NCBI RefSeq assembly: GCF_058153355.1
Contig: NZ_CM177019.1
Length of the DNA: 64,000 bases
Strand: one strand, 5' to 3'
This document shows, one piece after another, positions 165 to 63,760 of this stretch (its first letter is position 1; each line of letters starts with the position of its first letter). Made by a program: the position numbers and the translations under genes. The notes under the pieces were generated by a model that was given only the letters and a program-made list of their open reading frames with translations, was not told the DNA's origin and did no database searches.

Positions 165-278
165 CAAGATTTTTCCGTTTAAACAGTCTCGTTAAACAGA
201 ATGATACACTGCGAAGGGAGTGACAGACAGGCTTCAGAAGAGGTAGCGTGACCGACTTCCCGGTCACGCTAAGAATGA

Positions 279-2941: not shown

Positions 2942-3010
2942 TCACAACTATCGATCAACTCATTCTCTTTTTTTGCTAAAGTCGGCATAAATTTCCTGCA
3001 AGGACTGGAT

Positions 3011-3787: not shown

Positions 3788-3799
3788 GTTTGCATAAAT

Positions 3800-3833
3800 G
3801 CCGGATGCGGCGTGAACGCCTTATCCGGCCTAC
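3800..3833. repeat. REP (repetitive extragenic palindromic) element
   Basis: gccggatgcggcgtgaacgccttatccggcctac, classic REP palindrome. Confidence 0.8.
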
Positions 3834-3928
3834 AAAAGCATGCAGATTCAATATATTGCAGAATTAACGTAGATACTGTTATGGCCTGCAAGTTTTTTTC
3901 TACCCCGGTTTCCCAGATTGCAGGCATG

Positions 3929-5212
<1,284 letters not shown>

Positions 5213-5218
5213 TGTCAT

Positions 5219-5515
5219 TTAGCGGTGATGTTTGCCTGGACCATGACCGCCGTGATGATCATGAGGAGCTTTCTTATGGTGGCGCGGCGGTGGCGGCGGT
5301 CCGTGTGGGTGCCAGCGATTGCCTCGCCATTCATAATGTTGTTTCCACCAGCCGTGGTCGCGCCAGTGACCGCCATCCCAGTAATAGCCACGATTATCAC
5401 GATCGCCTATCTGTAATTTTACTGACGGGACTAACGTAATTTCCGCAGCCTGTGCTGCCATGGGAGCGACCAGAACCAGGGAAAGTGCGAGTACGATAGA
5501 TTGCATCTTTTTCAC
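5219..5515 (-). CDS. yaaX: DUF2502 secreted His/Gly/Trp-rich protein YaaX
   Basis: 98-aa ORF with signal peptide [23 protein letters not shown]; synteny next to thrC. Confidence 0.85.
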
Positions 5516-5728
5516 AGGTTACTCCTTTTATCATTGCCCGTTATGGGTCGATATCCGGAGATTACGCGATGAGAACGGCGGTTGTTATTCTCCGCAATCC
5601 TAATCTCTAAGTTACCGCATTTATTGAGAATTTCTCCTTTTTTCCTGTCGTTTTTCTCCATATTTTCTTCATAAAAAAGCCGGGCTGTATAAAAGCAAAC
5701 CCGGCCTGATTGAGATAATGAATAGATG

Positions 5729-7015: not shown

Positions 7016-7948
7016 TTAGTTTTCCAGTACTCGTGCGCCCGCCGTATCCAGCCGGCAAATATGAACAAAACCTTCCTGATTTTGCAGGTAGTTCTTACCC
7101 AACCAGTCGGCAACGCGCTGGGCGGTATCCGGCTTGTCACACAGAGCGAACAAAGTCGGGCCGGAGCCGGAGATACCGCTCGCTACCGCGCCGATTTCCG
7201 CGACCGCCTGCCGCGCCTGCCGGAAGCCTGGCAGTAACCGTTCACGGTAGGGTTCAGCGATAACATCTTTCATCAGCTTCGCGGCAAGCTCAGGCTGACG
7301 GGAATAGCAGGCGTGAATGAAGCCTGCCAGATGTCGCCCGTGCGCAATGCAATCCTGGCGGCGATACTGCGCCGGTAAAATCGCCCTGGCTTCTGCCGTC
7401 GAGACTTTAATCCCCGGATATGCCAGCACCCACAGCCACTCATCAAACCCAGGCACTTGCTGGCTGATGATGTCGTTTTCTTCGATCATCAACTGCATAC
7501 CACCAAGAAAACACGGTGCCACGTTGTCGTAATGAATGCTGCCGGAGATACGCCCTTCCAGCTCGCCCATCAAAGCCAGCAAACGGGTGTCATTAAGCGG
7601 CTTGCCGCAATGTTCATTCATCGCCATCAGCGCCGCCACCACCGAACAAGCGCTGGATCCTAAACCCGAACCGATCGGCATATTCTTTTCCAGCGTCATT
7701 GCCACTGGAATTTGCTTGCCCAGCTCCTGGCAAAAACGCTCCCAGCACTGATAAACGATATTTTCCCTTGGTTCTGACGGCAGCTTATCGGCAAAGCGTC
7801 CGAGATTGTTGAGACTGAATGTCTCTGCCGCCTCAACCGTTACTACATCTCCGAGCAATGCACCATCAACAGGTGTCACCGCCGCCCCGAGCACATCAAA
7901 CCCGACGCTCATATTGGCACTGGAAGCCGGGGCATAAACTTTAACCAT
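7016..7948 (-). CDS. thrB: Homoserine kinase
   Basis: 310-aa [27 protein letters not shown]... Confidence 0.97.
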
Positions 7949-7949
7949 G

Positions 7950-10412
7950 TCAGACTCCTAACTTCCATGAGAGGGTACGTAGCAGATCGGCAAAGACACC
8001 AGCAGCTGTAACGTCATTGCCCGCGCCATATCCGCGCAGAACCAACGGCAGCGGCTGATAATAGTGGCTATAGAAGGCCAGGGCGTTTTCGCCATTTTTC
8101 ACTTTGAACAGCGGATCATTGCCATCCACTTCGGCAATCTTCACGCGGCAGATGCCATCTTCATCAATATTGCCAACATAGCGCAAAACTTTGCCCTCAT
8201 CACGAGCCTTCGCCACGCGTGCGGCAAAGAGATCGTCGAGCTGTGACAGATTCGCCATAAAAGCTGCAACATCACCCTCTGCGTTAAACTCTGCGGGCAG
8301 CACAGGTTCAATTTCAATATCCGCCAGTTCCAGTTCACGTCCCGTTTCACGGGCGAGAATCAATAGCTTACGCGCCACATCCATACCAGAAAGATCATCT
8401 CGCGGGTCCGGTTCGGTATAACCCATTTCCCGCGCCAGCGTGGTCGCCTCAGAGAAACTCATGCCTTCGTCTAACTTGCCGAAGATATAAGAAAGCGAAC
8501 CGGAAAGAATGCCGGAGAACTTCATTAATTCATCACCTGCGTTGAGCAGATTTTGCAGGTTCTCAATAACCGGTAATCCAGCCCCAACGTTAGTGTCATA
8601 GAGGAATTTACGCCGCGATTTTTCCGCCGCATAACGCAACTGATGGTAGTAATCCATCGACGAGGTGTTGGCCTTTTTGTTTGGCGTAACCACGTGGAAA
8701 CCTTCGCGCAGGAAGTCAGCATACTGATCCGCCACCGCCTGGCTGGAGGTACAGTCGACAATCACCGGATTCAGCAAATGATATTCTTTCACCAGGCGAA
8801 TTAAGCGCCCGAGGTTAAACGGCTCTTTGGCTTGCGCCAGTTCTTCCTGCCAGTTCTCCAGATTAAGGCCATGCACATTGGTGAGCAGAGCCTTTGAGTT
8901 GGCAACGCCGCAGACACGTAAGTCGATATGTTTATTCTTCAGCCAGCTTTGCTGGCGCTTCAGTTGCTCCAGCAGCGCACCGCCAACACCACCGACGCCA
9001 ATCACAAACACTTCGATAACCTGATCGGTATTGAACAGCATCTGGTGGGTAACGCGCACGCCAGTGGTCGCATCATCGTTATTTACCACGACAGAGATTG
9101 AGCGTTCAGAAGATCCCTGAGCAATGGCGACAATGTTGATATTGGCGCGGGCCAGCGCGGCAAAGAATTTCGCCGAGATCCCACGCAAGGTGCGCATACC
9201 ATCACCTACCACCGAGATAATGGCTAGCCGTTCCGTCACCGCCAGCGGCTCCAGCAAGCCTTCCTTCAGTTCAAGATAGAACTCTTCCTGCATCGCCCGT
9301 TCAGCTCGCACACAGTCGCTTTGTGGAACGCAGAAACTGATACTGTATTCAGAAGACGATTGCGTAATCAGCACCACTGAAATGCGAGCGCGTGACATTG
9401 CCGCAAAGACGCGCGCCGCCATGCCGACCATCCCTTTCATTCCCGGACCGGATACGCTAAACATTGCCATGTTATTCAGATTGGAAATGCCCTTGACTGG
9501 TAATTCGTCTTCATCACGGCTGGCGCCAATGAGCGTACCTGGTGCTTGAGGATTTCCGGTGTTTTTAATCAGGCAAGGGATCTGGAACTGAGCGATGGGG
9601 GTAATGGTGCGGGGGTGAAGAACTTTAGCGCCGAAGTAGGAAAGCTCCATCGCTTCCTGATAGGACATCGACTTCAACAACCTCGCATCGGGCACCTGAC
9701 GCGGGTCGCAGGTATAGACCCCGTCAACGTCCGTCCAAATCTCGCAACAATCGGCGCGTAAACAGGCAGCCAGTACCGCGGCGGAGTAGTCGGAACCGTT
9801 ACGTCCAAGCACCACCAGTTCGCCTTTTTCATTACCCGCAGTGAAACCTGCCATCAGCACCATGTGGTCAGCCGGAATGCGGCTTGCCGCAATACGGCGG
9901 GTGGACTCAGCAATATCGACGGTAGATTCGAGGTAATGACCGACTGCCAGCAGTTTTTCGACCGGATCGATTACGGTAACGTTGTGACCACGCGCTTCTA
10001 AAACTCCGGCCATAATGGCGATCGACATTTTCTCGCCACGGCAAATCAGTGCCGCGTTGATGCTATCCGGGCACTGCCCTAACAAACTAATACCATGCAG
10101 GACATGTTTAATTTGGGCAAATTCCTGGTCGACGAAAGTTTTCAGCTGCGCCAGCGGGAATCCCGGCTGGGCGGCGGCGAGTCCCGTCAGAAGTTCGGCA
10201 AAAATACGTTCGGCATCGCTGATATTGGGTAAAGCATCCTGGCCGCTAATCGTTTTTTCAATCATCGCCACCAGGTGGTTGGTGATTTTGGCGGGGGCAG
10301 AGAGGACGGTGGCCACCTGCCCCTGCCTAGCATTGCTTTCCAGAATATCGGCAACCCGCAGAAAACGTTCTGCATTTGCCACTGATGTACCGCCGAACTT
10401 CAACACTCGCAT
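7950..10412 (-). CDS. thrA: Bifunctional aspartokinase I / homoserine dehydrogenase I
   Basis: ORF 7950..10454; true start taken as [18 protein letters not shown] (820 aa). Confidence 0.95.
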
Positions 10413-10437
10413 GGTTGTTACCTCGTTACCTTTGGTC

Positions 10438-10476
10438 GAAAAAAAAGCCCGCACTGTCAGGTGCGGGCTTTTTTCT
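10438..10476 (-). terminator. thr operon attenuator (rho-independent terminator hairpin)
   Basis: GC-rich hairpin gcccgcacctgacagtgcgggc followed by U-run on the minus strand, between thrL and thrA. Confidence 0.8.
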
Positions 10477-10492
10477 GTGTTTCCTGTACGCG

Positions 10493-10561
<69 letters not shown>

Positions 10562-10771
10562 TGTTGTGTACTCTGTAATTTTTATCTGTCTGTGCGCTAT
10601 GCCTATATTGGTTAAAGTATTTAGTGACCTAAGTCAATAAAATTTTAATTTACTCACGGCAGGTAACCAGTTCAGAAGCTGCTGTCAGAGACTCTTTTTT
10701 TAATCCACACAGAGACATATTGCCCGTTGCAGTCAGAATGAAAAGCTGAAAAATACTTACTAAGGCGTTTT

Positions 10772-11458
10772 TTATTTGGTGATATTTTTTTCAATATCAT
10801 GCAGCAAACGATGCAACATTGCCGTGTCTCGTTGCTCTAAAAGCCCCAGCCGTTGTTGTAACCAGTCGACCAGTTTTGTGTCATCTGCCACTGCCAGGGT
10901 CGTCAGCAATGACATGGCTCGTTCGCGTAAAGCTTGCAGTTGATGTTGGTCTGCCGTTGTGTCACTTTTGGCCGGTTGTTGTATTAATGTTGCTAATTGA
11001 TAGCAATAAACCATCACCGCCTGTCCCAGATTCAGCGAAGGATAATCTGCCACCATCGGCACACCAGTAAGAACGTCAGCCAAGGCTAACTCTTCGTTAG
11101 TCAGCCCGGAATCTTCGCGACCAAACACCAGCGCTGCATGGCTCATCCACGAGGATTTTTCCTCTAACAGCGGCACCAGTTCCACCGGCGTGGCGTAGTA
11201 ATGATATTTCGCCCGACTGCGTGCAGTGGTGGCGACAGTGAAGTCGACATCGTGTAACGATTCAGCCAGAGTTGGGAAAACTTTAATATTATCAATAATA
11301 TCACCAGATCCATGTGCGACCCAGCGGGTAGCTGGCTCCAGGTGTGCCTGACTATCGACAATTCGCAGCTCGCTAAACCCCATCGTTTTCATTGCCCGCG
11401 CCGCTGCCCCAATATTTTCTGCTCTGGCGGGTGCGACCAGAATAATCGTTATACGCAT
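10772..11458 (-). CDS. yjtD: SpoU-family tRNA/rRNA methyltransferase YjtD (LasT)
   Basis: 228-aa ORF MRITIILVAPARAENIGAAARAMKTMGF...; synteny. Confidence 0.9.
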   Translation of the reverse strand: MRITIILVAPARAENIGAAARAMKTMGFSELRIVDSQAHLEPATRWVAHGSGDIIDNIKVFPTLAESLHDVDFTVATTARSRAKYHYYATPVELVPLLEEKSSWMSHAALVFGREDSGLTNEELALADVLTGVPMVADYPSLNLGQAVMVYCYQLATLIQQPAKSDTTADQHQLQALRERAMSLLTTLAVADDTKLVDWLQQRLGLLEQRDTAMLHRLLHDIEKNITK

Positions 11459-11857
11459 ATTGCCACTCTTCTTGACCTAATAACCGCGCACAGGGTGATC
11501 ATTGTCAACTTATTACGCGGATCGAATTTACAAACTCTTAACGTAAGTCGCAGAAAAAGCCCTTCACTTAGCTTAAAAAAGACTAAACTATTTCATGACT
11601 GTACTAATGGTTGAATTGTTAAAAAATGCTACATATCCTTCTGTTTACTTAGGATAATTTTATAAAAAATAAATCTCGACAATTGGATTCACCACGTTTA
11701 TTAGTTGTATGATGCAACTAGTTGGATTATTAAAATAATGTGACGAAAGCTAGCATTTAGATACGATGATTTCATCAAACTGTTAACGTGCTACAATTGA
11801 ACTTGATATATGTCAACGAAGCGTAGTTTTATTGGGTGTCCGGCCCCTCTTAGCCTG

Positions 11858-11998
11858 TTATGTTGCTGTTAAAATGGTTAGGATGACAGCCGTTTTTGAC
11901 ACTGTCGGGTCCTGAGGGAAAGTACCCACGACCAAGCTAATGATGTTGTTGACGTTGATGGAAAGTGCATCAAGAACGCAATTACGTACTTTAGTCAT
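11858..11998 (-). CDS. yjjY: Small protein YjjY
   Basis: 46-codon ORF MTKVRNCVLDALSINVNNIISLVVGTFPQDPTVSKTAVILTILTAT (below the ORF-track cutoff), located between yjtD and arcA as in K-12. Confidence 0.6.
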   Translation of the reverse strand: MTKVRNCVLDALSINVNNIISLVVGTFPQDPTVSKTAVILTILTAT

Positions 11999-12093
11999 GT
12001 TACGCCGATCATGTTAATTTGCAGCATGCATCAGGCAGGTCAGGGACTTTTGTACTTCCTGTTTCGATTTAGTTGGCAATTTAGGTAGCAAAC

Positions 12094-12810
12094 ATGCAGA
12101 CCCCGCACATTCTTATCGTTGAAGACGAGTTGGTAACACGCAACACGTTGAAAAGTATTTTCGAAGCGGAAGGCTATGATGTTTTCGAAGCGACAGATGG
12201 CGCGGAAATGCATCAGATCCTCTCTGAATATGACATCAACCTGGTGATCATGGATATCAATCTGCCGGGTAAGAACGGTCTTCTGTTAGCGCGTGAACTG
12301 CGCGAGCAGGCGAATGTTGCGTTGATGTTCCTGACTGGCCGTGACAACGAAGTCGATAAAATTCTCGGCCTCGAAATCGGTGCAGATGATTACATCACCA
12401 AACCGTTCAACCCGCGTGAACTGACTATTCGTGCACGCAACCTGCTGTCTCGTACCATGAATCTGGGTACTGTCAGCGAAGAACGTCGTAGCGTTGAAAG
12501 CTACAAGTTCAATGGTTGGGAACTGGACATCAACAGCCGTTCGCTGATCGGCCCTGATGGCGAGCAGTACAAGCTGCCGCGCAGCGAGTTCCGCGCCATG
12601 CTTCACTTCTGTGAAAACCCAGGCAAAATTCAGTCCCGTGCTGAACTGCTGAAGAAAATGACCGGCCGTGAGCTGAAACCGCACGACCGTACTGTAGACG
12701 TGACGATCCGCCGTATTCGTAAACATTTCGAATCTACGCCGGATACGCCGGAAATCATCGCCACCATTCACGGTGAAGGTTATCGCTTCTGCGGTGATCT
12801 GGAAGATTAA
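12094..12810 (+). CDS. arcA: Aerobic respiration control response regulator ArcA
   Basis: 238-aa [36 protein letters not shown]... Confidence 0.97.
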
Positions 12811-12825
12811 TCGGCTTTACCACCG

Positions 12826-12862
12826 TCAAAAAAACGGCGCTTTTTAGCGCCGTTTTTATTTT
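12826..12862. terminator. Bidirectional rho-independent terminator between arcA and creD
   Basis: aaaaacggcgct ttttagcgccgttttt hairpin flanked by A/T runs on both strands. Confidence 0.6.
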
Positions 12863-12868
12863 TCAACC

Positions 12869-14221
12869 TTATTTCCAGATACGTAACTCATCGTCCGTTG
12901 TAACTTCTTTACTGGCTTTCATTTTCGGCAGTGAAAACGCATACCAGTCGATATTACGGGTCACAAACATCATGCCGGCCAGCGCCACCACCAGCACACT
13001 GGTTCCCAACAACAGCGCGCTATCGGCAGAGTTGAGCAGTCCCCACATCACACCATCCAGCAACAACAGCGCGAGAGTAAACAACATGCTGTTGCGCCAG
13101 CCTTTTAATACCGCCTGCAAGTAAATACCGTTCATTAACGCCCCTATCAGGCTGGCGATTATCCATGCCACGGTAAAACCGGTATGTTCAGAAAGCGCCA
13201 GCAAGAGCAAATAAAACATCACCAATGAAAGCCCCACCAGTAAATATTGCATCGGGTGTAAACGTTGAACGGTAAGCGTTTCAAAAACAAAGAAGGCCAT
13301 AAAAGTCAGCGCAATCAGCAAAATAGCGTACTTAGTCGCCCGATCCGTTAATTGGTATTGATCGGCTGGCGTCGTCACTGCGACGCTAAACGCCGGGAAG
13401 TTTTCCCAGCCGGTATCATTACCTGAAGCAAAACGCTCACCGAGATTATTAGCAAACCAGCTGCTTTGCCATTGCGCCTGAAAACCAGACTCGCTGACTT
13501 CCCGTTTGGCTGGCAGAAAATCACCTAAAAAACTGGGATGCGGCCAGTTGCTGGTTAAGGTCATTTCGCTATTACGCCCGGCAGGCACCACAGAAAGATT
13601 GCCGGTACCGCTTAAATTCAGCGCCATATTCAGCTTCAGGTTCTGCTTCCGCAAGTCCCCTTCGGGTAAAGGGATATGCACGCCCTGCCCGCCTTGCTCT
13701 AACCCGGTACCGGGTTCAATGGTCAGCGCCGTTCCGTTAACGTCAGGTGCTTTCACCACACCTATACCACGCGCATCCCCGACGCCAATCACAATAAATG
13801 GCTTGCCTAAGGTGATATTTGGCGCATTGAGTTCGCTAAGACGCGAAACATCAAAATCGGCTTTTAGCGTTAAATCACTATGCCAGACCTGACCGGTATA
13901 AATCCCAATCTTGCGTTCTTCCACGTTCTGATTGCCATCAACCATCAATGACTCAGGTAACCAAAAATGGATAAAACTTCGTTTCCGCTCCACGGTTTTA
14001 TCCTCTTCCTGCACCGTATAAAGCTCGGTCACAGGAATAGCGATGAGCGGTCCAACAAGTTTCTGCGGCCCGCTGGTACTTTGCCGAATCGCATCTTCCA
14101 CATCGCTACGATAATCGGCACGTTCGACAATCACCTGCCGAATCAGCATTATCGGAATCAACAACAGCAATACTGCAGCAAACAGGGGGGTCATTTTCCA
14201 GAACAGGGGGGATTTCAACAT
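12869..14221 (-). CDS. creD: Inner membrane protein CreD
   Basis: 450-aa membrane ORF; cre operon order. Confidence 0.9.
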   Translation of the reverse strand: MLKSPLFWKMTPLFAAVLLLLIPIMLIRQVIVERADYRSDVEDAIRQSTSGPQKLVGPLIAIPVTELYTVQEEDKTVERKRSFIHFWLPESLMVDGNQNVEERKIGIYTGQVWHSDLTLKADFDVSRLSELNAPNITLGKPFIVIGVGDARGIGVVKAPDVNGTALTIEPGTGLEQGGQGVHIPLPEGDLRKQNLKLNMALNLSGTGNLSVVPAGRNSEMTLTSNWPHPSFLGDFLPAKREVSESGFQAQWQSSWFANNLGERFASGNDTGWENFPAFSVAVTTPADQYQLTDRATKYAILLIALTFMAFFVFETLTVQRLHPMQYLLVGLSLVMFYLLLLALSEHTGFTVAWIIASLIGALMNGIYLQAVLKGWRNSMLFTLALLLLDGVMWGLLNSADSALLLGTSVLVVALAGMMFVTRNIDWYAFSLPKMKASKEVTTDDELRIWK

Positions 14222-14278
14222 AGTCTTCTCCTTTGCAAGGACCGCAGGTTACAAAGGCTATGTGGGAAGAATTTGAAG

Positions 14279-15703
14279 CTATGTGAAGTGACGGTGAAGT
14301 CGAAGCGAAGCCAGCACACCGCCTTGTGGCACGTTGCACAGTGTGACTTCGCCATTAAGCAAACGGGCAACCTCACTGACGAACGCCAACCCCAAACCAC
14401 TACTTTTTTGCCCATTCGCACGCGGCAAAGAGTAAAAGCGCTCAAAAACACGCGACAGGGCGTAGTCAGGAATACCACTACCGGTATCCAGCACCTTAAG
14501 CGTAACGTGTTCATGATCCACTTCAGCGCTTAGCGTTATGCTACCGCCCTCGGGGGTAAAATCGATGGCGTTATCCAATAAATTCCCCAGCGCCTGCTCC
14601 AGTAACGCCGATTCAGCAGCAACGTTAACCTCGGTGGGCATAACATGTAGAGTGATGTTTTTTTCCGCCAACTGCACGGTGCGCGCTTCGCTGATGCGGC
14701 GAAATAATGCCGTCACATCAACAGCAGTCAGAACGACTTCCTGACGATTCTCCAGTCTTGCCTGGCGTAGTAACGTTTCCACCAGCGCCTGCATTCGCGC
14801 ATTTTGCGTCAGAATGTTGTCGGTAAAACGAGCCACCACTTCCGGCGGCGGACCTTCGCGTAAAATTTCCGCCGCACCACGAATCGCCGCCAGTGGGCTT
14901 TTTAGCTCATGAGTTAATGCGTAAACATACTGCTCAATATAGTTTTTCCCTTCCAGCTTCACGCGCATACTTTCCAGCGCCTGCGCGAGTTTACGCAGCT
15001 CGCTACTACCGAGATCGGGGAGAGGAACGGGCTTATTGTCAGTGACGGAATCAGCATAGCGAGTGAGCCGGGCAATGGAGCGGTTGATCCACCAAACCAT
15101 GCCTGCGCCAATCACCAGTGCAATCCCCAACAAAATGGCGCTGGCCCATAAAATTCGCCGCTCGCTGCGCTTAATGACCGGAGCCATCGCCGCGTTCGGT
15201 TTGCCTACGCTCAAAACGCCAATAAGCCGCGAGCCGTCCATAATTGGCGCGGCAACATACATCACAGAACTTTCGGGATCGTCAGGATTTTGCAACGTGC
15301 TGCGCGCACCATACTGACCACGCAACGTTAGCCAGACGTCATTCCAGCGCGAGTAATCCTGTCCAACGGCTTTATTTGCCGAATCGAACAATACTTTGCC
15401 CTGCGCATCAGTCATGTAGACATGATATTCATTACGAACTTTGTGAATGCCACCGATATTGGCGCGAAACGGGCGATGTTGTAGCTGATTAAACGCCTGC
15501 GCCAGTTGCCCATGCGTTGGATCACCAGAGAGCAAATCGGAACGCGCCAACTCTGCCAGCAATGTTGCGGTGTCGATCAACGTTCCCTCCGTTGCTCTTC
15601 GCACGCCCGGTTTAACTTCTTTGACAAAAATTGCCAGTACGAACCAGGCCGCCACTGCCACCAGTAAAAAATAGCCCAGCAACAACCTCATGCCGATACG
15701 CAT
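14279..15703 (-). CDS. creC: Sensor histidine kinase CreC
   Basis: 474-aa ORF with HisKA/HATPase motifs. Confidence 0.9.
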   Translation of the reverse strand: MRIGMRLLLGYFLLVAVAAWFVLAIFVKEVKPGVRRATEGTLIDTATLLAELARSDLLSGDPTHGQLAQAFNQLQHRPFRANIGGIHKVRNEYHVYMTDAQGKVLFDSANKAVGQDYSRWNDVWLTLRGQYGARSTLQNPDDPESSVMYVAAPIMDGSRLIGVLSVGKPNAAMAPVIKRSERRILWASAILLGIALVIGAGMVWWINRSIARLTRYADSVTDNKPVPLPDLGSSELRKLAQALESMRVKLEGKNYIEQYVYALTHELKSPLAAIRGAAEILREGPPPEVVARFTDNILTQNARMQALVETLLRQARLENRQEVVLTAVDVTALFRRISEARTVQLAEKNITLHVMPTEVNVAAESALLEQALGNLLDNAIDFTPEGGSITLSAEVDHEHVTLKVLDTGSGIPDYALSRVFERFYSLPRANGQKSSGLGLAFVSEVARLLNGEVTLCNVPQGGVLASLRLHRHFT

Positions 15704-16392
15704 TACAGTCCCCTCAGGCTATATCCCATGCCGCGATGAGTATTAATCGGGGAAAGATCGGGGTTAATGGCGCGCAGCTTGGCACGCAGCGTTTTAATGT
15801 GGGTATCGACGGTGCGATCGTAGGTGTCCTGCGCATCTTCCCACACGCTATCCATCAGTTGCTGGCGGGACCAGACGCGGCCCGGCGACTTGAGTAATGT
15901 TTTCAGCAGCAAAAACTCATACCGCGTCAGCGTTAATGGCGTGTCAAACCAGCTGATCTGCGCCGCAGGTTCATTCAATTCAAAATGACCAATACGGATA
16001 ACGGGAGACGGCGTCGAGAACTTCCTCACCCGACGCAGTAAGGTGCGCACTCTGGCGCACACTTCGCGAGGTGAAAACGGTTTAGCCACGTAGTCGTCAG
16101 CGCCAATTTCCAGCCCAAGCAGGCGATCGACCTCTTCACTTCGGGCCGTCAGGAACAGTACAGGTAACGCCGGATGGAGCGCCAGTAACTGGCGGCACAA
16201 TTCAAAGCCGCTGATATCAGGCAAACCAACATCGAGAATCATGACATCGGGAACCTGCTGGCGAGCTTTATCCAGCACCGGCAAGCCTCGCTCAAAGACC
16301 TCGACGGCAAAACCTTCCTGTTGCAACATGTAGACTAGCGTGTCGGCTATCCCTTGCTCATCTTCCACTAACCAGACCGTTTCCCGTTGCAT
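15703..16392 (-). CDS. creB: Response regulator CreB
   Basis: 229-aa OmpR-family ORF MQRETVWLVEDEQ... Confidence 0.9.
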   Translation of the reverse strand: MQRETVWLVEDEQGIADTLVYMLQQEGFAVEVFERGLPVLDKARQQVPDVMILDVGLPDISGFELCRQLLALHPALPVLFLTARSEEVDRLLGLEIGADDYVAKPFSPREVCARVRTLLRRVRKFSTPSPVIRIGHFELNEPAAQISWFDTPLTLTRYEFLLLKTLLKSPGRVWSRQQLMDSVWEDAQDTYDRTVDTHIKTLRAKLRAINPDLSPINTHRGMGYSLRGL

Positions 16393-16404
16393 AAATCGCC
16401 TCTG

Positions 16405-16878
16405 TTATTGCCGCCACGGCATGACAGGAACCGCGCTAATCGCGTTTTTCGGCGAACCTTCTACGACTTTGTCGGAGTAAGCCAGATAAGCGAGCGCGTT
16501 GCGTTTGGCGTCATAAAAGCGCACGACCTGTAACGACTTAAAGACCAACGACGTGCGTTTTTTGAATACTACCTCGCCCTGAGCTTTGCCGTTTTTAATG
16601 CGATCTGACAGTTCAATCGGCCCGACTTGCTGACAAGAAATAGCCGCATCGGAAGTATCTTCCGCCAGGCCCAATCCCCCTTTAATACCGCCGGTTTTCG
16701 CCCGGCTCACATAACAGGTGACATTTTTCACATCGGGATCGTCAAAGGCTTCCACAACAATTTTGTGATCAGGACCGATCATTTTAAATACGGTGTCGAC
16801 CGAACCAATCTCTTCTGCATGAGCCAATGGCCCCAGCATTATCAGGCTTAAAGACAGGATCAAATGCTTGTATTTCAT
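16405..16878 (-). CDS. creA: Periplasmic protein CreA
   Basis: 157-aa ORF with signal peptide; synteny. Confidence 0.85.
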
Positions 16879-17088
16879 ATTGTTACCATTTTTATCTATT
16901 ACACGAGCAATTAGTTCGTCACGGTAAATAACATATTGATTAAGAACAAAATCTCAATACTTTTATTTCCGTCAAGCCCTAAAACATACGCTACTAAGAA
17001 AAAAACACTGAATGCTAAAACAGCAAAAAATGCTATTATCCAATTACCTGATGTCAGGTGCTCGTTGTTGAAAGGATGAGGATATTTT

Positions 17089-44178: not shown

Positions 44179-45492
44179 TTAAATACTCGCCACATTATAC
44201 CAGGTGCCATTTATATACTTTTGCACTGGCCTGTAATGAACGCCTGCAATATTATCGGCAGAGTTTTTTCCGGTATCCTGTACGTTAATCCCCGTCAGTA
44301 CATAGCCTGACGGGCACTGGAAATTCCATGTTTGCCAGTTATTCACACCATAATATTGCTGTGAGCCAAGCCGGACATCTTTCACATATCTGGAGTCAAA
44401 ATTGCCATAATTGCCGGGAATAACTTGCGCACCACAAAGCCAGTTACCGTTATTATCCATGTACGCCTGACCATCGGTGCCATTGGCTGTCCTTGAGTTA
44501 TTAATCATGTAGATGCCAAATTGCTTATTCCCCAGCCCACCAATTACGAATTTACGGTCGGTATGGTCCTGGCGAAGCAATGCCTGCGCACCATCGTTGG
44601 ATACCGCATTACGGCCCAGAATAACATTCTGGTCACGCATATGAATCCACATGCCGGTACTACTGTTAATTGCAAAACGGTTTGCAAATATATCCCCTGT
44701 AACATCAAGACCATGCCCCATGCTTATCCGGCCAGTTCTGAGATTAAGCGTAAAGGGGCGTAGTGGCCCTATATCACCATTTTCCCCCTCATTCTCTCGT
44801 GTAGGGATGATATGCAGGCATTCTTCAGAACGACGAAAAATGGCACCAAAAGATGAATTAAATATCCTCAGTGCATTGACTGTCGATATTTTCACTTCAC
44901 TGCTGAAAAGGGCTTTCACAAGAACATACAGAGCATCCCATTTAAGATTCATCAGGTCTTTAACCCGGCCGCCAGTGAGGTGGTGTCTCCATTTGAAATA
45001 TTCATTACCGTTATCCGCCGTTTCAAACCACATGTAGGAATCGGTGTCTGCATCCGAATCATTTTTAAATCCAATCTTCGCCCAGTCAGTATTCCGAATC
45101 CAGGCAAGGATTGAGTCGTTTTCAAAAGTAAGTCCACCGGACAAGGTATCGCCATTTTTTTGCACAGCGTTCCTGGCCCGGTTTACCGTTTCCTGTAAAC
45201 CAAGGTTTTCGAGAGCCGTTTTCACCGTGCCATCCAATTTGATATCGCCAAACGGATTCTTGCGGCTTAACAGCAGCGCGCGAAGTGCGGTAATCAACTG
45301 ATCGTGCTGCCCTTTCTCCAGGCTGGCACCGGATGCCTCCACCACGCTGCAGAGTTCTTCCTGCAACATATCAAAGTAGTCATCATCCAGATCGGTGGCA
45401 GGTGTGCCGGTCTGGGGGTTACCACGGGTAAAACCGTTCTTACCCGCGCCGAACTTATCCTTCTGCGCGGTTTTAGTGTCTATGCGATGCAT
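44179..45492 (-). CDS. Phage tail fibre protein (constant N-terminus plus currently expressed variable C-terminus)
   Basis: 437-aa ORF; codons 94-101 (LENLGLQE) are encoded by a gix-like site; C-terminus …[17 protein letters not shown]. Confidence 0.85.
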
Positions 45493-45495
45493 GGA

Positions 45496-46080
45496 TTACT
45501 CCGGATATTTAAAAATTACGTAGGTATGCGACGGGCAGAGTTTGTTAAGCACACACTCGACAACGGTGTCGCCCCATATACGCAGCGCGGAATCACAGGG
45601 ATCGCCACATGTCATCCAGGTGGTGTTGGTGGTGGCTGGCATGTTGACCTGCCAGTAATACCGCCATTCCAGCGCATTCACCGCGTCAGTACAGGCTGAT
45701 GAGCAGGTGAACGTGCTTTTGTCGTATCGCGTGATGGTGGCATCTGGTCTGCCCAGGGCAGCAAGCTGTGCAAGATAAAAATCCTCGTTGATGCCGCCCG
45801 CCAGGTTAACCTTCGCATCCAGCCGTTGCTGACGCTGGCGAAGGGTCTGCGTTCCCGCCGGAATACATTCATCCGGCAGACCGCACAGACGCTCCCAGCG
45901 GTTTATCAGTTCGGTGGTGGTGCGCGGATCCAGCTCCCGCATCAGGGCATCCGCACGCTGATGAACACGGGTTAATGACGGTGCCGCACCGGCAATCGCC
46001 GGATCGCTGGCTGACCACGCCGGACCGGGCGGCAACAGTGCCGATAACAGGCGGATGTAATCATCGTTTGTCACGTCCAT
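45496..46080 (-). CDS. Phage tail protein (Mu gp48-like)
   Basis: 194-aa ORF directly upstream of the tail fibre in a baseplate operon. Confidence 0.65.
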
Positions 46081-47129
46081 GAAATCGTCCCCAGCACCGC
46101 CAGTTCATTTTTTGCAATGGAGATATTGTCCGCCGGTGCAAGCAATTGATGGCTGTATTCCCCGTTCGCACCGGAAATCGCTTCACTGATACGCGACACC
46201 TTCAGTTCTCCCTGCGGATAACCATCACGCAGCAGGAACGAACGCAACTCCGCAGTAATGGCGGTTCGTATTTCCGGTGTGTCCGGCGTCACGCGGATAT
46301 GAAAATCCACCGTATGTGCCACCGGCCTGAACACATACAAATCAGAGCCTGCCACCGGGGCCAGTGGCCCGATATGTTGTCTTGCCGCCGTTTCCGTTGA
46401 TTCTTCCGGAATGGGATTAATCAGGTCACTGCTGGCAATCATCACACCGACAGTTCCCGTTCCCATCCAGTGACGGTATGTCCATGCGCGGGTAATGCCG
46501 GGCACTTCTTTAGCCCAGACGACATAGTCCCCGTCAGCCCCGCCCTGCGGCGTCCAGTAATACCGCTCAATGACGCGGGCGCGCCACGTTTCCAGCTCTT
46601 CAGTATCAAATCCGCCTGTCAGGGTGTCAGCCACACCGGAAGACGGCAGACCATTCACCGGCGTGACCAGGATTAATGCCGTACCGTCGTCAGCGTTACC
46701 GACCGCGCCTGCATTTGAGCAGGCGATCGGCACGCGCAGGACACCACCGGAGCTGGTTGCATCGGCAGTTGCAGTATACTGAACCAGGTCATCGCGCTGA
46801 ATAACACTCCCGGCGGTCACCTTCAGGCCATCGCTGACACCTTCCCAGCGCATATACCCGCTGGCAGCCGTGGCCCCCTTGCGCGGACACCGTTTCATCG
46901 CAGCATGTCGCGCCAGCCAGGACTCATCGCACAGGTCAGGCAGCATGTTCATTGCCAGATAATCGATGTACCCGTAAACCGTATGCAGCGCCGCCGCATA
47001 CACCTTTGCCCGCACGTCTTCATCCATGCGCCGGAGCGTGTCGCTGACGTCCAGCCTGGCGAATAAATCGTTACGGAGCATACTGATATTTTCTGCCAGC
47101 GTCGGGCGCTGAAATTCACTGTCTGCCAT
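46071..47129 (-). CDS. Baseplate J-like protein (Mu gp47-like)
   Basis: 352-aa ORF; gene order and size match the Mu-type baseplate wedge. Confidence 0.75.
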
Positions 47130-47544
47130 GCGTTATCGCACTCCACAGATCATCAAAAGAAATCATTACCGGTCCGTCACGACGCCAGAGAGTGATACTG
47201 TTACCCAGTTCATTAATCCCGGTGCGGCGGATATCCAGATCAATACGGGACACCACGCCGTCATCAATCATCCATTGCAGGCATTCGCGGATATACCCCC
47301 TTACCGTCTGCACCAGCTGATTGGTCAGTTTGCTGCGCTGAAGCAGCCACAGTCGGGAGCCGTAACGGTCATTCTGTACCGCAGGCCAGGTATCCCCCCA
47401 CCATCCCATCGGGACGTCGGCGTTGTCATCAGGCTCCGCCCGCCGCCAGGTAAACAGGGAAATCACCACGGCGCGGGTCAGCGGATCCAGCGGTGCGCTG
47501 GCGCAGGTGCGTTTACCGTTCACCGTCAGCCACAGTTCCATCAT
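47116..47544 (-). CDS. Baseplate protein (Mu gp46-like)
   Basis: 142-aa ORF; synteny. Confidence 0.65.
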   Translation of the reverse strand: MMELWLTVNGKRTCASAPLDPLTRAVVISLFTWRRAEPDDNADVPMGWWGDTWPAVQNDRYGSRLWLLQRSKLTNQLVQTVRGYIRECLQWMIDDGVVSRIDLDIRRTGINELGNSITLWRRDGPVMISFDDLWSAITHGRQ

Positions 47545-48089
47545 GCCTCCATCGCTTTATCAGGTTTGTCGGTGTTACTGCCCTGACCGTTCTCTCTGTG
47601 ACGATGCCCGTTATAGGCAAGCCGCATCGCTGACATGGTGGTGCCGCCGGAGTCGCACAGGTCTTTCACCTGTCCTGTCACTTCCAGATCCATTTCAAAA
47701 CGTGCTTTAGGTGAATTGCGAAACGTGATCGTTTTACCTGCACCGTCCACCACGATCCCCTCCCGGGTCAGCGTCACGGACTGCCCCTGATCGTCATAGA
47801 CAGCCACCTCACCCGTCTGCAGCCCTTTCAGGCGGTAACGCCGGTCCGACACCGTAACAACCACCGCATGAGAACGGTCACCATCCGGAAACAACACCAC
47901 CGCTTCCGCACCGCTGTTTGCCCTTGCGGTAAAACCGTAAGGTTCAAGATGTTCAACCCCGGCTTTGGGTTCACCGGCAATCAGGGACACATCCACGGTC
48001 TGACATTTCGTGGCGGCACTGATGCTTTTCACCACGGCCCGCCCAATCAGCCCGAGGAGTTGTCGCTGTATGGTTTCAATCGCCCTCAT
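47541..48089 (-). CDS. Baseplate assembly/spike protein (Mu gp45-like)
   Basis: 182-aa ORF; synteny. Confidence 0.65.
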   Translation of the reverse strand: MRAIETIQRQLLGLIGRAVVKSISAATKCQTVDVSLIAGEPKAGVEHLEPYGFTARANSGAEAVVLFPDGDRSHAVVVTVSDRRYRLKGLQTGEVAVYDDQGQSVTLTREGIVVDGAGKTITFRNSPKARFEMDLEVTGQVKDLCDSGGTTMSAMRLAYNGHRHRENGQGSNTDKPDKAMEA

Positions 48090-58615: not shown

Positions 58616-59846
58616 TTTTTGGGGGCTTAAAATCTCCTGCCGGGTTAGCAGCATTCACGCTTACCAGCATCTCATCCAGCCCTTCAACCGGATTCATATC
58701 CTCGAATGCGCGGGCCTCATTACGGCTCATCCATCCATCGGTAATAGCGAAGTGATAGAATTGCGCGCGCTCCTGCGGAGTTCCGCGTAAAAGCCCCGTC
58801 AGATTGAACCTGACGTAATACCCGGCGGCTAACTCAGCGCGGGTAAACAAGCGACGGTTAAGCTCCTGCTCCCAGTTCGTCACCCACGGCATCATCGTGT
58901 AGCGGACAAACTGAATCGCCTGCGCAGAAATATTGGAGAAGGTGGCTTTTTCGAGGTCATTAATCATGTGCGCAGGAATATTGAAAATACCGGCAATCAT
59001 TGAACGGTTCAGTTTCATCATGTCAATGATCTGAGCGTCAACTGGCGACACAGTCAGTGCCTTGTAATCCAGATCGGCTGGCAACAGCATGGTTTTGTTT
59101 TCCTGGCTGCGTAACGCCTGCGATGCCTTCTGCCACTGATCTTTAAGCCAGCCCCAGCTGTCCTTATTGAGTCCGCTTTTAACGGATACTATCCCCGCCG
59201 GACGGGCATTACCGCTGAAGAAGCTTTCTGTGTATTTCTGACCGCTCATCCCCATGCCTATTGTTTCGGCATGTTGCATAATCGGACTCAGCCCCATCTT
59301 CTGATTATTACCCAGCGCACGAATGTGGATCATATCGTCGGGGCTGATCGCAAACGCCCCATATTCGTTGTACAAACCGTAGGTGTATCGGCCACCAGTA
59401 TTCATCAGCGTCGTTTCCCACGGCATACAGCAATCCAGGGATATGACTTCACCGCGACGATTACGTTTCACCCAGGTATACCCATTCCCCCAGCCAAGGA
59501 TGTGACGTTGCTTCAGTTCGCGCCATTTGTAACTGGTTTGCCAGGTATTGGGCTCATCATGAACCAGATAAAACGCCGGATGATCGCGTGCGGGCTCAAC
59601 CTTCCCATTGTGCCTGCGCATAACATGCAACGGCATCTGGGCAAGGCTGGAAGACAGGACATAGATACAGGAATACACCGCAGCCAGTTTCATCGCAGTT
59701 TCAGGACTGACATAAACGTCTGCCCGGAACAGCCCATCAGTATCAACGGCATCCCCGGTTATCGGGGTGGAAGGATTCTCCAGTGCTTTACTTCTGAACA
59801 GAGCATCAAGCAGCACGCGTCCCCCTTCTGGCCATAGCCAGTGCAC
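58590..59846 (-). CDS. Portal protein (HK97-family)
   Basis: 418-aa ORF between terminase and protease. Confidence 0.85.
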   Translation of the reverse strand: MHWLWPEGGRVLLDALFRSKALENPSTPITGDAVDTDGLFRADVYVSPETAMKLAAVYSCIYVLSSSLAQMPLHVMRRHNGKVEPARDHPAFYLVHDEPNTWQTSYKWRELKQRHILGWGNGYTWVKRNRRGEVISLDCCMPWETTLMNTGGRYTYGLYNEYGAFAISPDDMIHIRALGNNQKMGLSPIMQHAETIGMGMSGQKYTESFFSGNARPAGIVSVKSGLNKDSWGWLKDQWQKASQALRSQENKTMLLPADLDYKALTVSPVDAQIIDMMKLNRSMIAGIFNIPAHMINDLEKATFSNISAQAIQFVRYTMMPWVTNWEQELNRRLFTRAELAAGYYVRFNLTGLLRGTPQERAQFYHFAITDGWMSRNEARAFEDMNPVEGLDEMLVSVNAANPAGDFKPPKNDEGKTNE

Positions 59847-59963
59847 CCACCAGCAGTAAACCGCCGGACAGCATCAGAGCCGGAGCCATACCAAACTGCA
59901 GGTAAAACCCGCACGCAAGCAGGCCAAAACCAGCCAGCCCGATAACATCAGCAATTAGTGATT

Positions 59964-61697
59964 TCATAGAATTAAGAGAGCATCGTCCGGATCAAGAGAT
60001 GAGAGGAAATCGTCGGGTTCTTTGAGCATTGCCCGACCGATCGCCATAATCAGTGCAACCGCACCATCGATTTTGTTTTCCGCCTGCTCCTTGACAGGCT
60101 TCACCACATCATCGTTACCCGGAATAGTTTTGCCGACCACGTTGCCGATACACCAGGTCATGATGGGATTGCCGTCATGATGAAAGCGCCCCGATTCAAT
60201 CGCCGCTTCCAGCTCTTTCATCGGATCGGACATGTTGGTGTAGTTCTGAATGATGGTGATGGGGTTCAGGTCTTCATCAGCAAGGTCATGCGACAGCCCG
60301 GTCGCCCCGAAGGGGTCGATGGGTGACTCACTGACCGGGCTGATTTTGTTCGCCGCTTTGGCCTCCTCGAGGATGTAGCGATAATCCACCTCCGCACCAG
60401 CGGTAACAGTCAGAACGCCCATTTCCACCCATTTCTGAAAGCGTTCGGCTGTCCGGCGATCTTCATTTTTCTCGACGCTGTACACCGTGTCATACGGTAC
60501 CCAGAAACGCGGAGCCACACTGTAGTAATGCGTTTTACCGTCAATCTCGCGGGTATAAAGTCGCGCCATGCTGTTCATATCCAGCTTACGCGCCAGGTCA
60601 AAGGCCAGAATGCACGGCTGCCCCTCGAACTGCTCAAGGGACAGTGATTTATCCTCGCAGCTCTGCCAGCTCACCAGGTTGAAATACGCCGAACGCGCCG
60701 ACACCCAGATATTGAGGTGTTTTGTTTTAAAGACGTTTGCCAGACGGGCGTTATTTTTCGCACGCTGCTGCTGACTTAACAAAAATTCGCGATAAACCGA
60801 CACGCCAATATTCGGGTTAGCTTTTTCCAGCACCTGCGGGTCGGTCCAGTCATCGCCTTCGTCAACGGTATAGATGATCCCGAACAATTCATCGTTGGGT
60901 ACCGACCCGTTGAGCATCTCGATAACTTCCCGCCGCTTGTCGTAGCACGGCCCCTCAATGTTGTACCCGGCGGTGGTGATGGCCCACATCAGTGGCTGAC
61001 GTCGCGCCCCCATCCCGGTAAGCATCGTGGTATAAAGCGCATCGGTGGCGTGCTCGTGATATTCATCCACGACGGCACAGTGGGGTGATGAACCATCACC
61101 GGGGTTACCGATCAGCGGTTCAAACCGCGCGCCATCCTCCGGACGGTTCATGTTTGAGGCGTTAACCTCAATCCCGAACGCTTCCGTCAGCATGGGTGTG
61201 CGTTTACACATCAGTCGAGCCGGGCGAAAGACTTCCCACGCCTGTTTCTCTGTCGTGGCACCGGAATACACTTCCGCGCCAAACTCGTTATCACAGGCAA
61301 AACAATACAGGGCAACACCGGCAGAGATTGCCGATTTGCCGTTCTTACGGGGGATTTCGGTATACACCTCCCTGAAGCGGCGCAGCCGGGAGCCTTTATT
61401 GACCCAGCCAAACGCACAGCAGATCACAAAGAGCTGCCACGGTTCCAGCGTGATGGGCATCCTCTTGAATGCCCACTCCCCCTTGGTGTGTGGCAACAGC
61501 TGAATAAATTTCGCGGCCCGTTCAGCCAGGTCCTTGTCGAAGCGGTAACGAAACGACTTACTTTTTTCCGCCATCAGGTCATCAAGATGGCGCTGGCAGG
61601 CCTGAATCACAAACTGGCAGGCCACAATCTTTCCGCGCACGACATCACGGGCATACTGATTGGCAGCATTTACGTTGGGGTAAGATTTCCGGCTCAT
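59964..61697 (-). CDS. Terminase large subunit
   Basis: 577-aa ORF with ATPase and nuclease regions. Confidence 0.9.
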
Positions 61698-62197
61698 GAT
61701 TCGATGATTTTCAGAAACGGGTTAGTGGCTTTCTTCTGCCCCGCCAGGCCAATCAGACGCTGGCGGCTGCTGGGGTCGAGTCCGAGCATTGCCCCCGTGC
61801 TGCTCATCTCGGACTCCTGTTCTTTTTTGGCTGTCAGCTCCGGATTTTTGACCCTGCCGCCCATTGCGCCGGTGATGGTGTTGCCCTGTATGGCAATATT
61901 TTTCACGGCACGTCGCCAGAACTCATAGGCCACGCACCACCGCTCAAGCACCGCGAGGTCAGTCACGCACAGCAGGCCCTGACCGCAGAGTTCTTTGGTT
62001 GTCAGTTGCCACATGATCGTGGCGAGAGTGAGATCTTCTTCAGCGAACCACTCCGGTGGCTCAACACCTTTGATGGGCGTAAAAACAGGTTCATCTTTGT
62101 TCAGGGCTCGCTTGCCGGGGTTTCCGGCCAGCGCCTTGCGCGCCGTTGGCTTGGGGCGACGCCCGGAACGCCCCGCCGTTCCAGCCATATGCGGCAC
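61694..62197 (-). CDS. Terminase small subunit (P27-family-like)
   Basis: 167-aa ORF overlapping the terminase large start. Confidence 0.8.
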
Positions 62198-62313
62198 TCC
62201 TGGTTAAATTTCATTTTTCGCGGGTATAAAAAAACGATGGGGCGGGCAGTCCGGAAGACGTCAGGTCACAGAGATTTGACCCGCCCCTCCCCTCAGACAG
62301 TTGAGAATTATTA
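62198..62313. other. Candidate cos / packaging-initiation region
   Basis: Intergenic between the HNH gene and terminase small subunit; GC-rich inverted motifs ggggcgggcag and gacccgcccctcccc. Confidence 0.3.
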
Positions 62314-62664
62314 TCACTTAAGTCGTTCACGGGCCGTCTTCGCCTTATGACACGGCCAGCACAGACTCTGCAGATTACAGTCGGCATCAGTGCCGCCATG
62401 CGCTTTAGGGATGATGTGGTCAACGGTTTTCGCCTCACGCACCACACCAGCACGCAGACATAACTGACACAGGCCTTTGTCACGCTTCAGGACACGCGCG
62501 CGGATACTGTCCCACTTCGAACCATAGCCGCGCTGATGACGGGACTGACCTGGCTTGTATTGCTTCCAGCCTTCACTTTTGTGGCTTTCGCAATAGCCTG
62601 ACGGGTCAGTGGTTGTAGAGCTGCAGCCGCGAATACGGCAGGCCTTTGGGATTCGTGGTGGCAT
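62314..62664 (-). CDS. HNH endonuclease (packaging-associated)
   Basis: 116-aa ORF with Cys pairs (C..C ... C..C) and His-Asn-His signature, immediately upstream of terminase. Confidence 0.85.
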   Translation of the reverse strand: MPPRIPKACRIRGCSSTTTDPSGYCESHKSEGWKQYKPGQSRHQRGYGSKWDSIRARVLKRDKGLCQLCLRAGVVREAKTVDHIIPKAHGGTDADCNLQSLCWPCHKAKTARERLK

Positions 62665-62689
62665 TTATCAATCTCCACTCAATTCCTTT

Positions 62690-63214
62690 CTACTTCGTCA
62701 TCATTTTACTAAGTTCCTGAGGAGTCAATTCCCATGTAATAAACCGAGAAGACTCCAAAACATCATCTTCTCCGAGCAAGTATTTACGTATATTCTTCAT
62801 GAAGACCCTATAATCTGGGGCATCATTCTTGTGCGACAGAATTTTAGACAATTCCGTTGCTAGATCAGCTGGTAACCATAAAAAAGCCTCATTTGTTAAT
62901 TGTCTTAATCTTTTTCTGTCATAGGGATTTGTCATCCATTCAGACATAAGCTCGGCAATTAATGCCGACTTCATTCTTATCTCATGTTGCCTTTTTTGCT
63001 TATCCAGAATAACAGTGTTTGCTGTTTTTATTGTTTCAAGCATAACATCGTATTCATGCTTGACTGCATTCTGCACAGTGCTTTGTAGCCAAGTTCTCCC
63101 AATAAAAAACATTAAAGGGAGTATTACAACCCAAGCGATTACATTTGCTATCCAACCAGCGTCCATATCTATCCTCATGAAAATAAAAATGATTAACACA
63201 CAAGCTGTTAGCAT
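62690..63214 (-). CDS. Hypothetical membrane-anchored protein (prophage moron candidate)
   Basis: 174-aa ORF with two N-terminal hydrophobic helices, AT-rich coding sequence, wedged between lysis cassette and HNH/terminase. Confidence 0.5.
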   Translation of the reverse strand: MLTACVLIIFIFMRIDMDAGWIANVIAWVVILPLMFFIGRTWLQSTVQNAVKHEYDVMLETIKTANTVILDKQKRQHEIRMKSALIAELMSEWMTNPYDRKRLRQLTNEAFLWLPADLATELSKILSHKNDAPDYRVFMKNIRKYLLGEDDVLESSRFITWELTPQELSKMMTK

Positions 63215-63225
63215 ATAACATTATT

Positions 63226-63483
63226 TCAATGATTACTTCTTTTGCTTTCTATTTTGCGGATTGCAACTTTATCTTGATTACATTGATTTAATGCTGATAA
63301 CAAATTCACATTCAAATCAAGACTTGCACCATACGTCAGTGGGTTGGGTATAAACGGTACAGGAGTATCAGAAGTCAAGCTGACTGGTAGTGGTGTCTTC
63401 GGAATGCTCACGTAAACTGTTCGCGTACTTCCGCAACCTGTCAGCAGCGGCAGCAGGTACAGGACGGGCAGCACAATCATCAT
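63226..63483 (-). CDS. o-spanin (Rz1-like outer-membrane lipoprotein)
   Basis: +1-frame ORF overlapping the end of Rz; MMIVLPVLYLLPLLTGC lipobox, proline-rich mature region. Confidence 0.6.
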   Translation of the reverse strand: MMIVLPVLYLLPLLTGCGSTRTVYVSIPKTPLPVSLTSDTPVPFIPNPLTYGASLDLNVNLLSALNQCNQDKVAIRKIESKRSNH

Positions 63484-63760
63484 CCGCAACAGCCACTTTA
63501 ATATCTTCCTGGGTTCTCTGTGACTCCAGTGCGATCTGCTGTTTTGCATGCTGGTTAGCCTCCAGAACTGTATTGACGATTTGCATTGATTGCAGGACGT
63601 TATTGGTAATGGCAGTTGCTGATTCAGCATTTTGTACAGCCTCATCAGCACGTTTCTTTTCGTACTGATATTTGCTGTAGTAGTAGTTGGCTGACCAGAT
63701 GAAAGAACCAATGGCAGTAACGAAAAAAGCAGCGATAATCAGCTTATAACTCAACTTCAT
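63368..63760 (-). CDS. i-spanin (Rz-like)
   Basis: 130-aa ORF with N-terminal TM helix and coiled-coil region, immediately downstream of endolysin. Confidence 0.7.
   Translation of the reverse strand: MKLSYKLIIAAFFVTAIGSFIWSANYYYSKYQYEKKRADEAVQNAESATAITNNVLQSMQIVNTVLEANQHAKQQIALESQRTQEDIKVAVADDDCAARPVPAAAADRLRKYANSLREHSEDTTTSQLDF

Follow-up and report, generated by a model that had tools for sequence, protein, structure and literature searches.

Gene organization around the HNH-terS spacer

In the window, the 64,000-nucleotide stretch of DNA analyzed here, a non-coding spacer separates the gene of an HNH endonuclease from the gene of a small terminase subunit. The surrounding phage genes are encoded on the minus strand and are listed below in the order of their transcription.

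63368-63760, minus strand: Rz-like ORF among the lysis genes (ORF list)
62314-62664, minus strand: HNH endonuclease gene, a packaging accessory nuclease (Pfam PF01844, E 5e-15; phrog_144, E 2e-44)
61694-62188, minus strand: small terminase gene terS, P27 family, Terminase_4 (PF05119, E 4e-20; phrog_83, E 1e-58)
59964-61697, minus strand: large terminase gene terL, HK97-type ATPase and nuclease (PF03354 and PF20441)
58590-59846, minus strand: portal gene (ORF list)
57995-58654, minus strand: protease-like ORF (ORF list)

Minus-strand transcription runs from the lysis genes through an ORF at 62690-63214 and the HNH gene, across the spacer, and on to terS, terL, the portal and the protease. PHROGs and Pfam agree on the assignments of HNH, TerS and TerL, and the ORFs from HNH to protease are all full-length with intact domains. 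The HNH protein matches PDB entry 5h0m (E 3e-12). Residues 112-556 of TerL match PDB entry 6z6d, “Terminase large subunit” (E 4.8e-25), which we take to be the HK97 TerL structure. No PDB sequence matched the window TerS at E <= 1.

The longest ORF of terS spans 61694-62197 and begins with a GTG at 62197, which overlaps the Shine-Dalgarno sequence AGGAG (62197-62201). The ATG at 62188 is the likelier start, as it lies behind AGGAG and is the start annotated in SfV and SfI. With this start, the true spacer is 62189-62313. The first-pass annotation had placed a spacer of 116 bp between HNH and terS; a non-coding spacer does exist there, and its length becomes 125 bp with the ATG start.

The ORF at 62690-63214 (minus strand), between the lysis genes and HNH, encodes 174 amino acids with a hydrophobic N-terminus and has no Pfam or PHROG match. 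Its region is a low-GC island (31-38% GC, compared with about 55% in the flanks), and the ORF resembles a moron or cargo gene that has entered the genome immediately upstream of the packaging module. SfII carries a hypothetical gene at the equivalent position.

Identity and distribution of the prophage

The structural module of the window (45198-62256) is 97.3% identical to positions 1-16966 of SfV, thus the window carries an SfV-like prophage. Only 60% of window positions 40000-64000 aligns to SfV, which indicates mosaicism. When 61900-62700 was compared with phage records by megablast, the same junction was found in Shigella phages SfII, SfI, SfIV and SfV, as well as in Escherichia phages SKA5 and vB_EcoM-720R4 and Salmonella phage 118970_sal3. 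Of 5426 complete E. coli genomes, 1119 contain the 251-bp stretch around the spacer, with an identity of at least 90% in nearly all cases. Several chromosomes of E. coli contain 100% matches, so the host of the window is probably E. coli, as distinct from the Shigella phages SfI and SfV. Relatives of the window TerS are encoded in more than 590 IMG/VR stretches, among which 80 loci with TerS 98-99% identical were kept. The TerS proteins of SfI and SfII are 97.5-98.8% identical to that of the window.

The cohesive end and the proposed nick positions

The termini of SfI virion DNA have been sequenced directly by run-off and compared with the prophage, which left a 10-nt gap, 5'-TGCCCGCCCC-3', that was taken as cos (PMC3636060). 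This decamer occurs exactly in the HNH-terS spacer of the window, which bears out the earlier proposal that the spacer is a cos candidate. The features at the proposed cut are as follows.

62248..62239, minus strand (phage sense): cohesive end (cosN-like), TGCCCGCCCC, an exact match to the SfI-mapped decamer
62249..62251, minus strand: GAC triplet, a nick-box flank directly 5' of the overhang, present in 59 of 62 non-redundant spacers

On the plus strand the cohesive end reads GGGGCGGGCA. It coincides with the motif ggggcgggcag (62239-62249, plus strand), which the first-pass annotation had put forward, correctly as far as the SfI mapping goes, as part of a nicking region. With slashes for the proposed cuts, the minus-strand context in the window is GGAC/TGCCCGCCCC/ATCG and, over a longer range, ...GTCTTCCGGAC TGCCCGCCCC ATCGTTTTTTTATACCCGCGAAAAATGAAATTTAACCAGGAGTGCCGCATATG. 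The SfI record ends in ...GGACTGCCCGCCCC, i.e., exactly after the cohesive end, and restarts with GTCGTTTTTTTATACCCGCG.

The same HNH-cos-terS arrangement, with virtually the same spacer and an identical cohesive end, is found in SfI, SfV, SfII and SfIV. On either side of the overhang the window agrees fully with SfV, SfIV and SfII, and it departs from SfI at one base, +1 (A in the window, G in SfI). The window is also set apart from the SfI/SfV group by a few substitutions close behind the HNH stop codon. An identical cos site was reported for SfI, SfII, SfIV and SfV in the SfIV paper (PMC3851460), and the SfI paper terms the cos of SfV “postulated” (PMC3636060). The cos of the SfI/SfV group has thus been published before, and the spacer of the window is a further instance of it in an E. 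coli prophage.

The nicks would lie between 62239 and 62238 on the sense strand and between 62248 and 62249 on the complementary strand. Protruding 3' ends would leave such a gap in both run-off reads, because each template strand stops at its recessed 5' end. Together with the Burkholderia and HK97 data below, this suggests that the overhangs in the SfV/SfI lineage are 10-nt 3' overhangs, with exact ends that are drawn from one run-off sequencing experiment (SfI) and from the register with distant relatives.

Several phage records break inside the HNH-terS spacer. Those of SfV (NC_003444) and SfIV (NC_022749) are linearized between ...GACGTCT and TCCGGACTGCCCGCCCC (62255/62256 in the window), 17 nt upstream of the SfI-mapped sense-strand end. 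If the SfI mapping holds for these two phages, position 1 of their records is therefore not the physical genome end.

The comparison with known cos sequences of HK97-like phages that had been suggested earlier places the record ends of HK97 and phi1026b in the register of the window. In all three, GAC precedes the overhang and terS starts 46 to 51 nt past the cut.

Window junction: GGAC/TGCCCGCCCC/ATC
phi1026b junction: GGAC/CGCCCGCTTC/GTC
HK97 junction: TGAC/CGCCGCCAAA/GTT

The overhang is followed by GTC in 28 of the 62 spacers, which creates a two-fold symmetric GAC-N10-GTC; the window has ATC (62238-62236). The symmetry is consistent with a pair of symmetric nicks at a distance of 10 nt.

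The defined ends and 10-nt gap of SfI virion DNA (PMC3636060) argue against the spacer being an initiation region for headful (pac) packaging, the mode by which some Shigella serotype-converting phages (Sf6, SfX) package their DNA (PMC3636060). Likewise, the limited terminase similarity to Sf6 and SfX matches a different packaging mode (PMC3851460), and an HK97-type TerL with an adjacent HNH gene, as in the window, is the signature of HK97-type cos packaging (PMC3592412). We regard headful initiation at this spacer as having a negligible probability.

Conserved blocks in the spacers of related phages

Regions upstream of terS were gathered by three viral-contig scans, which started from the TerS of the window, from one of Klebsiella (34% identical to that of the window) and from that of phi1026b (52% identical). 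The scan with the window TerS returned only TerS proteins 98-99% identical to it, and the diversity was supplied by the two divergent queries. Moraxella phage Mcat30 and Klebsiella phage Kp4886-1 were added to the set; Vibrio phage P2, which has almost no HNH-terS spacer, was excluded from the alignment.

Among 155 unique spacers, 151 contain CCGCGAAA upstream of terS. A non-redundant set of 62 spacers, with pairwise identities below 88%, aligns gap-free when anchored on CCGCGAAA, an anchoring that makes the conservation of that block partly circular. Three blocks lie at rigid distances in these 62 spacers: a G-rich box with (T)CAAA, GAC(C/T)GCC at the nick, and the CCGCGAAA box. The third block consists of a T-tract, A(C)CCGCGAAA and then A/T-rich sequence. 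The conserved blocks span phages of Escherichia/Shigella, Klebsiella, Burkholderia and Moraxella. The outer two blocks correspond to the following features in the window, with distances counted from the sense-strand nick.

62272..62292, minus strand, -54..-34: G-box GGGGAGGGGCGGG (62292-62280) and TCAAATCT (62279-62272), at a fixed distance in the 62 spacers
62225..62216, minus strand, +14..+23: ACCCGCGAAA box, candidate core of the TerS recognition site from its conservation and the position of the HK97 site
62202..62235, minus strand: A/T-tract region on the cosB-like side, with T7 at 62234-62228, A5 at 62218-62214, and TGAAATTTAAC

The two halves of the spacer vary to different degrees. Among the 80 loci with TerS 98-99% identical to that of the window there are 38 distinct spacer variants, in which the terS-side half is essentially invariant and the HNH-side half varies, among other places in the G-box (GGGGAGGGGCGGG or GGGGAGGGGGAGG) and from TCAAATC to GGAC. 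At every base of its cos core and its terS-side half, the window has the majority form of the 80 IMG/VR loci.

The G-box with TCAAATCT is also found in HK97, and TCAAATCT begins 41 nt before the nick in both HK97 and the window. The side of the G-box is the end of the packaged genome, and in L147, a mosaic locus (see below), the box accompanies the HNH-side half. Its role is possibly a cosQ-like one in termination, or one linked to HNH/TerL. Neither the G-box nor the CCGCGAAA box was found described in the literature examined (outside Juhala 2000, Allison 2002/2003 and Kala 2014), and a full-text literature search for the sequence strings returned unrelated primer matches only.

The inverted repeat and the terminator alternative

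The first-pass annotation had pointed to a pair of GC-rich inverted motifs in the spacer, and both are present on the plus strand: ggggcgggcag, which overlies the cohesive end, and gacccgcccctcccc at 62278-62292. A perfect 8-bp inverted repeat does exist between them (GGGGCGGG at 62239-62246 and CCCGCCCC at 62280-62287, 33 nt apart). Such pairing is nevertheless at chance level, as a perfect repeat of at least 8 bp also arose in 7.9% of dinucleotide-shuffled versions of the spacer (2000 shuffles). It is also not kept in relatives: across the 62 spacers 66% of cells are paired, compared with 58-73% after a shift of one arm by 1-4 nt. Taken singly, each motif is far from chance, since it belongs to a block that is conserved, and fixed in position, among the phages. 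With the complementarity at chance level, the inverted repeat is a side effect of two conserved boxes, one rich in G and the other in C. The motifs thus stand as conserved elements, and their relation as inverted copies is incidental. The two motifs together had been proposed as the nicking and binding region; the second is the G-box, and the CCGCGAAA box on the terS side is the likelier TerS site.

The same sequence could be read as RNA, with GGGGCGGG-33 nt-CCCGCCCC-ATCG-TTTTTTT acting as an intrinsic terminator or RNA hairpin that closes the lysis/HNH transcript. On the minus strand, a GC-rich stem of 8-10 bp is indeed followed 4 nt on by T7, and the minimum-free-energy RNA fold (-26.9 kcal/mol) pairs both arms. 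However, the fold is no more stable than that of shuffled sequences (z = -0.27; 68 of 200 shuffles are as stable), and the loop of 33 nt compares with the 3-8 nt expected of a rho-independent terminator. A terminator scan of the spacer gave no match, nor did Rfam, and the pairing is not maintained in the 62 relatives, which show no compensatory change. The lysis genes and HNH are followed downstream by the head genes, all on one strand. In lambdoid phages, lysis and head genes are read from the same late transcript; if this applies here, a strong terminator in the spacer would be counter-productive. Given the negative scan, the shuffle-level fold, the lack of covariation and the lack of an Rfam match, the terminator or hairpin reading was rejected as highly improbable.

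A candidate recognition site for the small terminase subunit

In HK97, TerS is needed to stall the motor and to trigger cutting at cos (PMC11331095, PMC9410871). Its minimal site covers +15..+29 and depends on a C:G pair at position 21, next to which lies an A-tract that has to stay bendable (PMC11331095). The ACCCGCGAAA box of the window occupies a corresponding position: its core CCGCGAAA lies at +16..+23 and is flanked by the T7 and A5 tracts, in a sequence unlike that of the HK97 site. In addition, CCCGCGAAAAATGAAATTTAA is common to the spacers of the window and of the Burkholderia phages, whose TerS proteins are about 50% identical to that of the window. Judged by its linkage to terS, its conservation and its position, for which the HK97 site serves by analogy only, the strongest candidate for a TerS site is the ACCCGCGAAA box with the T7/A5 tracts. 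The A/T tracts at 62202..62235 may provide bendable DNA and form the rest of this site.

The N-terminal 35 residues of TerS, GR(R/K)PKPT..K...GNPGKR.LN..EP, are almost invariant across five proteins, that of the window and four relatives which are otherwise 34-52% identical to it. This conserved arm lies outside the Pfam Terminase_4 match (residues 60-150). An invariant basic N-terminal arm in the protein thus parallels an invariant box in the DNA, as a correlation only.

Comparison with other cos systems

HK97 has a 10-nt 3' overhang, and its HNH protein gp74 stimulates cos cleavage (PMC11331095, PMC9410871). Its gene order is that of the window (HNH, cos, terS, terL) and its TerL is homologous (6z6d). 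The 10-nt overhang after GAC, the G-box, TCAAATCT at -41 and a terS start 50-51 nt past the nick are likewise shared. Some 15-30 nt downstream, in the region bound by TerS in HK97, the window has a C/G core with A/T tracts that may correspond to the HK97 site. The overhang itself differs (CGCCGCCAAA in HK97, TGCCCGCCCC in the window), and the HNH stop codon is about 320 bp from cos in HK97 compared with 65 bp in the window. The downstream half-site is CTAACCCGATTTTTT in HK97 and TATACCCGCGAAAAAT in the window. This difference is in line with a TerS in HK97 that is unrelated by sequence: by BLASTP there is no detectable sequence similarity between the window TerS and HK97 gp1 (E 7.5), and gp1 has no Pfam match, whereas the window TerS belongs to PF05119.

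For the Burkholderia phages phiE125 and phi644-2, 10-base 3' extensions 5'-CGCCCGCTTC-3' have been reported (PMC2920897), and the last 10 nt of the phi1026b record are exactly CGCCCGCTTC. The extension in this group (phiE125, phi1026b, phi644-2) is identical to the cohesive end of the window at 7 of 10 positions and stands in the same register; TerS is again of the P27 family. GAC before the overhang, GCCCGCGAAA at +14..+23 and an upstream G-box are found as in the window. These phages differ from the window in being siphoviruses of another bacterial order, in carrying GTC after the overhang and hence the full GAC-N10-GTC, and in having AAAAAGTCT after the G-box in place of TCAAATCT.

The cos of lambda (cosQ-cosN-cosB) follows the same logic, with a nick site, a small-terminase site on the side of the terminase genes and a last-entering element on the opposite side. 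Lambda has 12-nt 5' overhangs, IHF sites in cosB and no HNH protein. The overhang thus differs from the 10-nt 3' type of the mapped relatives of the window, and the terminase families differ as well. The IHF consensus WATCAANNNNTTR was not found in 62150-62350 with up to 1 mismatch, and a search for direct repeats, which in lambda-type cos are the terminase R sites, gave only chance matches of 7-8 nt.

The probable packaging site and its proposed operation

The evidence in hand consists of the identity of the decamer to a mapped cos end, the register shared with two other mapped systems, and the three conserved boxes. On these comparisons of sequence, the spacer is very probably the cos site of a prophage of E. 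coli/Shigella that belongs to the temperate myoviruses of the SfV/SfI type and has a packaging module of the HK97 kind. During late replication, the P27-family TerS would recognize the terS-proximal half, i.e., the ACCCGCGAAA box with the T- and A-tracts at +5..+37. The HK97-type TerL, aided by the adjacent HNH endonuclease, would then nick the two strands at either end of TGCCCGCCCC. The sense strand would be cut after ...CCCC (62239/62238) and the other strand after GGGGCGGGCA (62248/62249), leaving 10-nt 3' overhangs. Packaging would start on the terS side and run along the entire genome until the next cos is reached, such that the last parts to enter are the HNH gene and the G-box.

Cryptic prophages are common in E. 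coli. The spacer could accordingly be a cos-like relic, in a prophage that is defective or uses another site and whose sequence is no longer cut. The prophage is seen only up to the window end at 64000, with the early and regulatory regions beyond, and the mosaicism indicated by the 60% alignment of 40000-64000 to SfV would also suit a relic. Against this stand the intact packaging and head ORFs from HNH to protease, and a cos core and terS-side half identical to those of the viable phages SfV, SfIV and SfII and to the majority form of the 80 loci. The identity of at least 90% in nearly all of the 1119 E. coli genomes also speaks against decay. A relic is thus considered very unlikely, and a functional cos remains the preferred reading.

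On its own, the finding carries little weight. It provides a correct packaging-site annotation for a type of prophage that about one in five complete E. coli genomes carries, which can be of use in defining genome ends, in predicting cos-mediated transduction or satellite hijacking, and in phage engineering. The family-wide alignment, moreover, yields testable candidates: a putative small-terminase recognition box and a conserved upstream G-box that HK97 shares.

Possible modularity of the half-sites

HK97 and the phages with a P27-family TerS (SfV/SfI, Klebsiella, phiE125, Moraxella) might share one modular cos built of three rigidly spaced boxes. The HNH-side half, with the G-box and TCAAA at -54..-37 and GAC at the nick, would be read by the HNH/TerL pair and could act in termination as cosQ does. 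The terS-side half, with CCGCGAAA and the A/T tracts, would be read by the N-terminal arm of TerS, and the halves would recombine inside the overhang. We put this forward tentatively, with somewhat less than even confidence.

The IMG/VR locus L147 (IMGVR_UViG_2840160255_000002) is 91% identical over positions 18-646 to the right end of HK97, until 4 nt before the HK97 cut. Its HK97-like part includes the HNH side, the G-box, TCAAATCT and GACCGCCGC. Beyond the switch lie a downstream half-site and a P27-family terS typical of Klebsiella prophages. Judged from its sequence, this locus is a natural mosaic with the recombination joint inside the cohesive-end sequence.

A different arrangement was observed in Vibrio phage P2 (KY658676.3, positions 860-910), whose TerS is 49% identical. 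The HNH stop codon is 6 nt from the terS start in this phage, so that its cos either overlaps the HNH coding sequence or sits elsewhere. The CCGCGAAA string is found there within the 3' end of the HNH gene.
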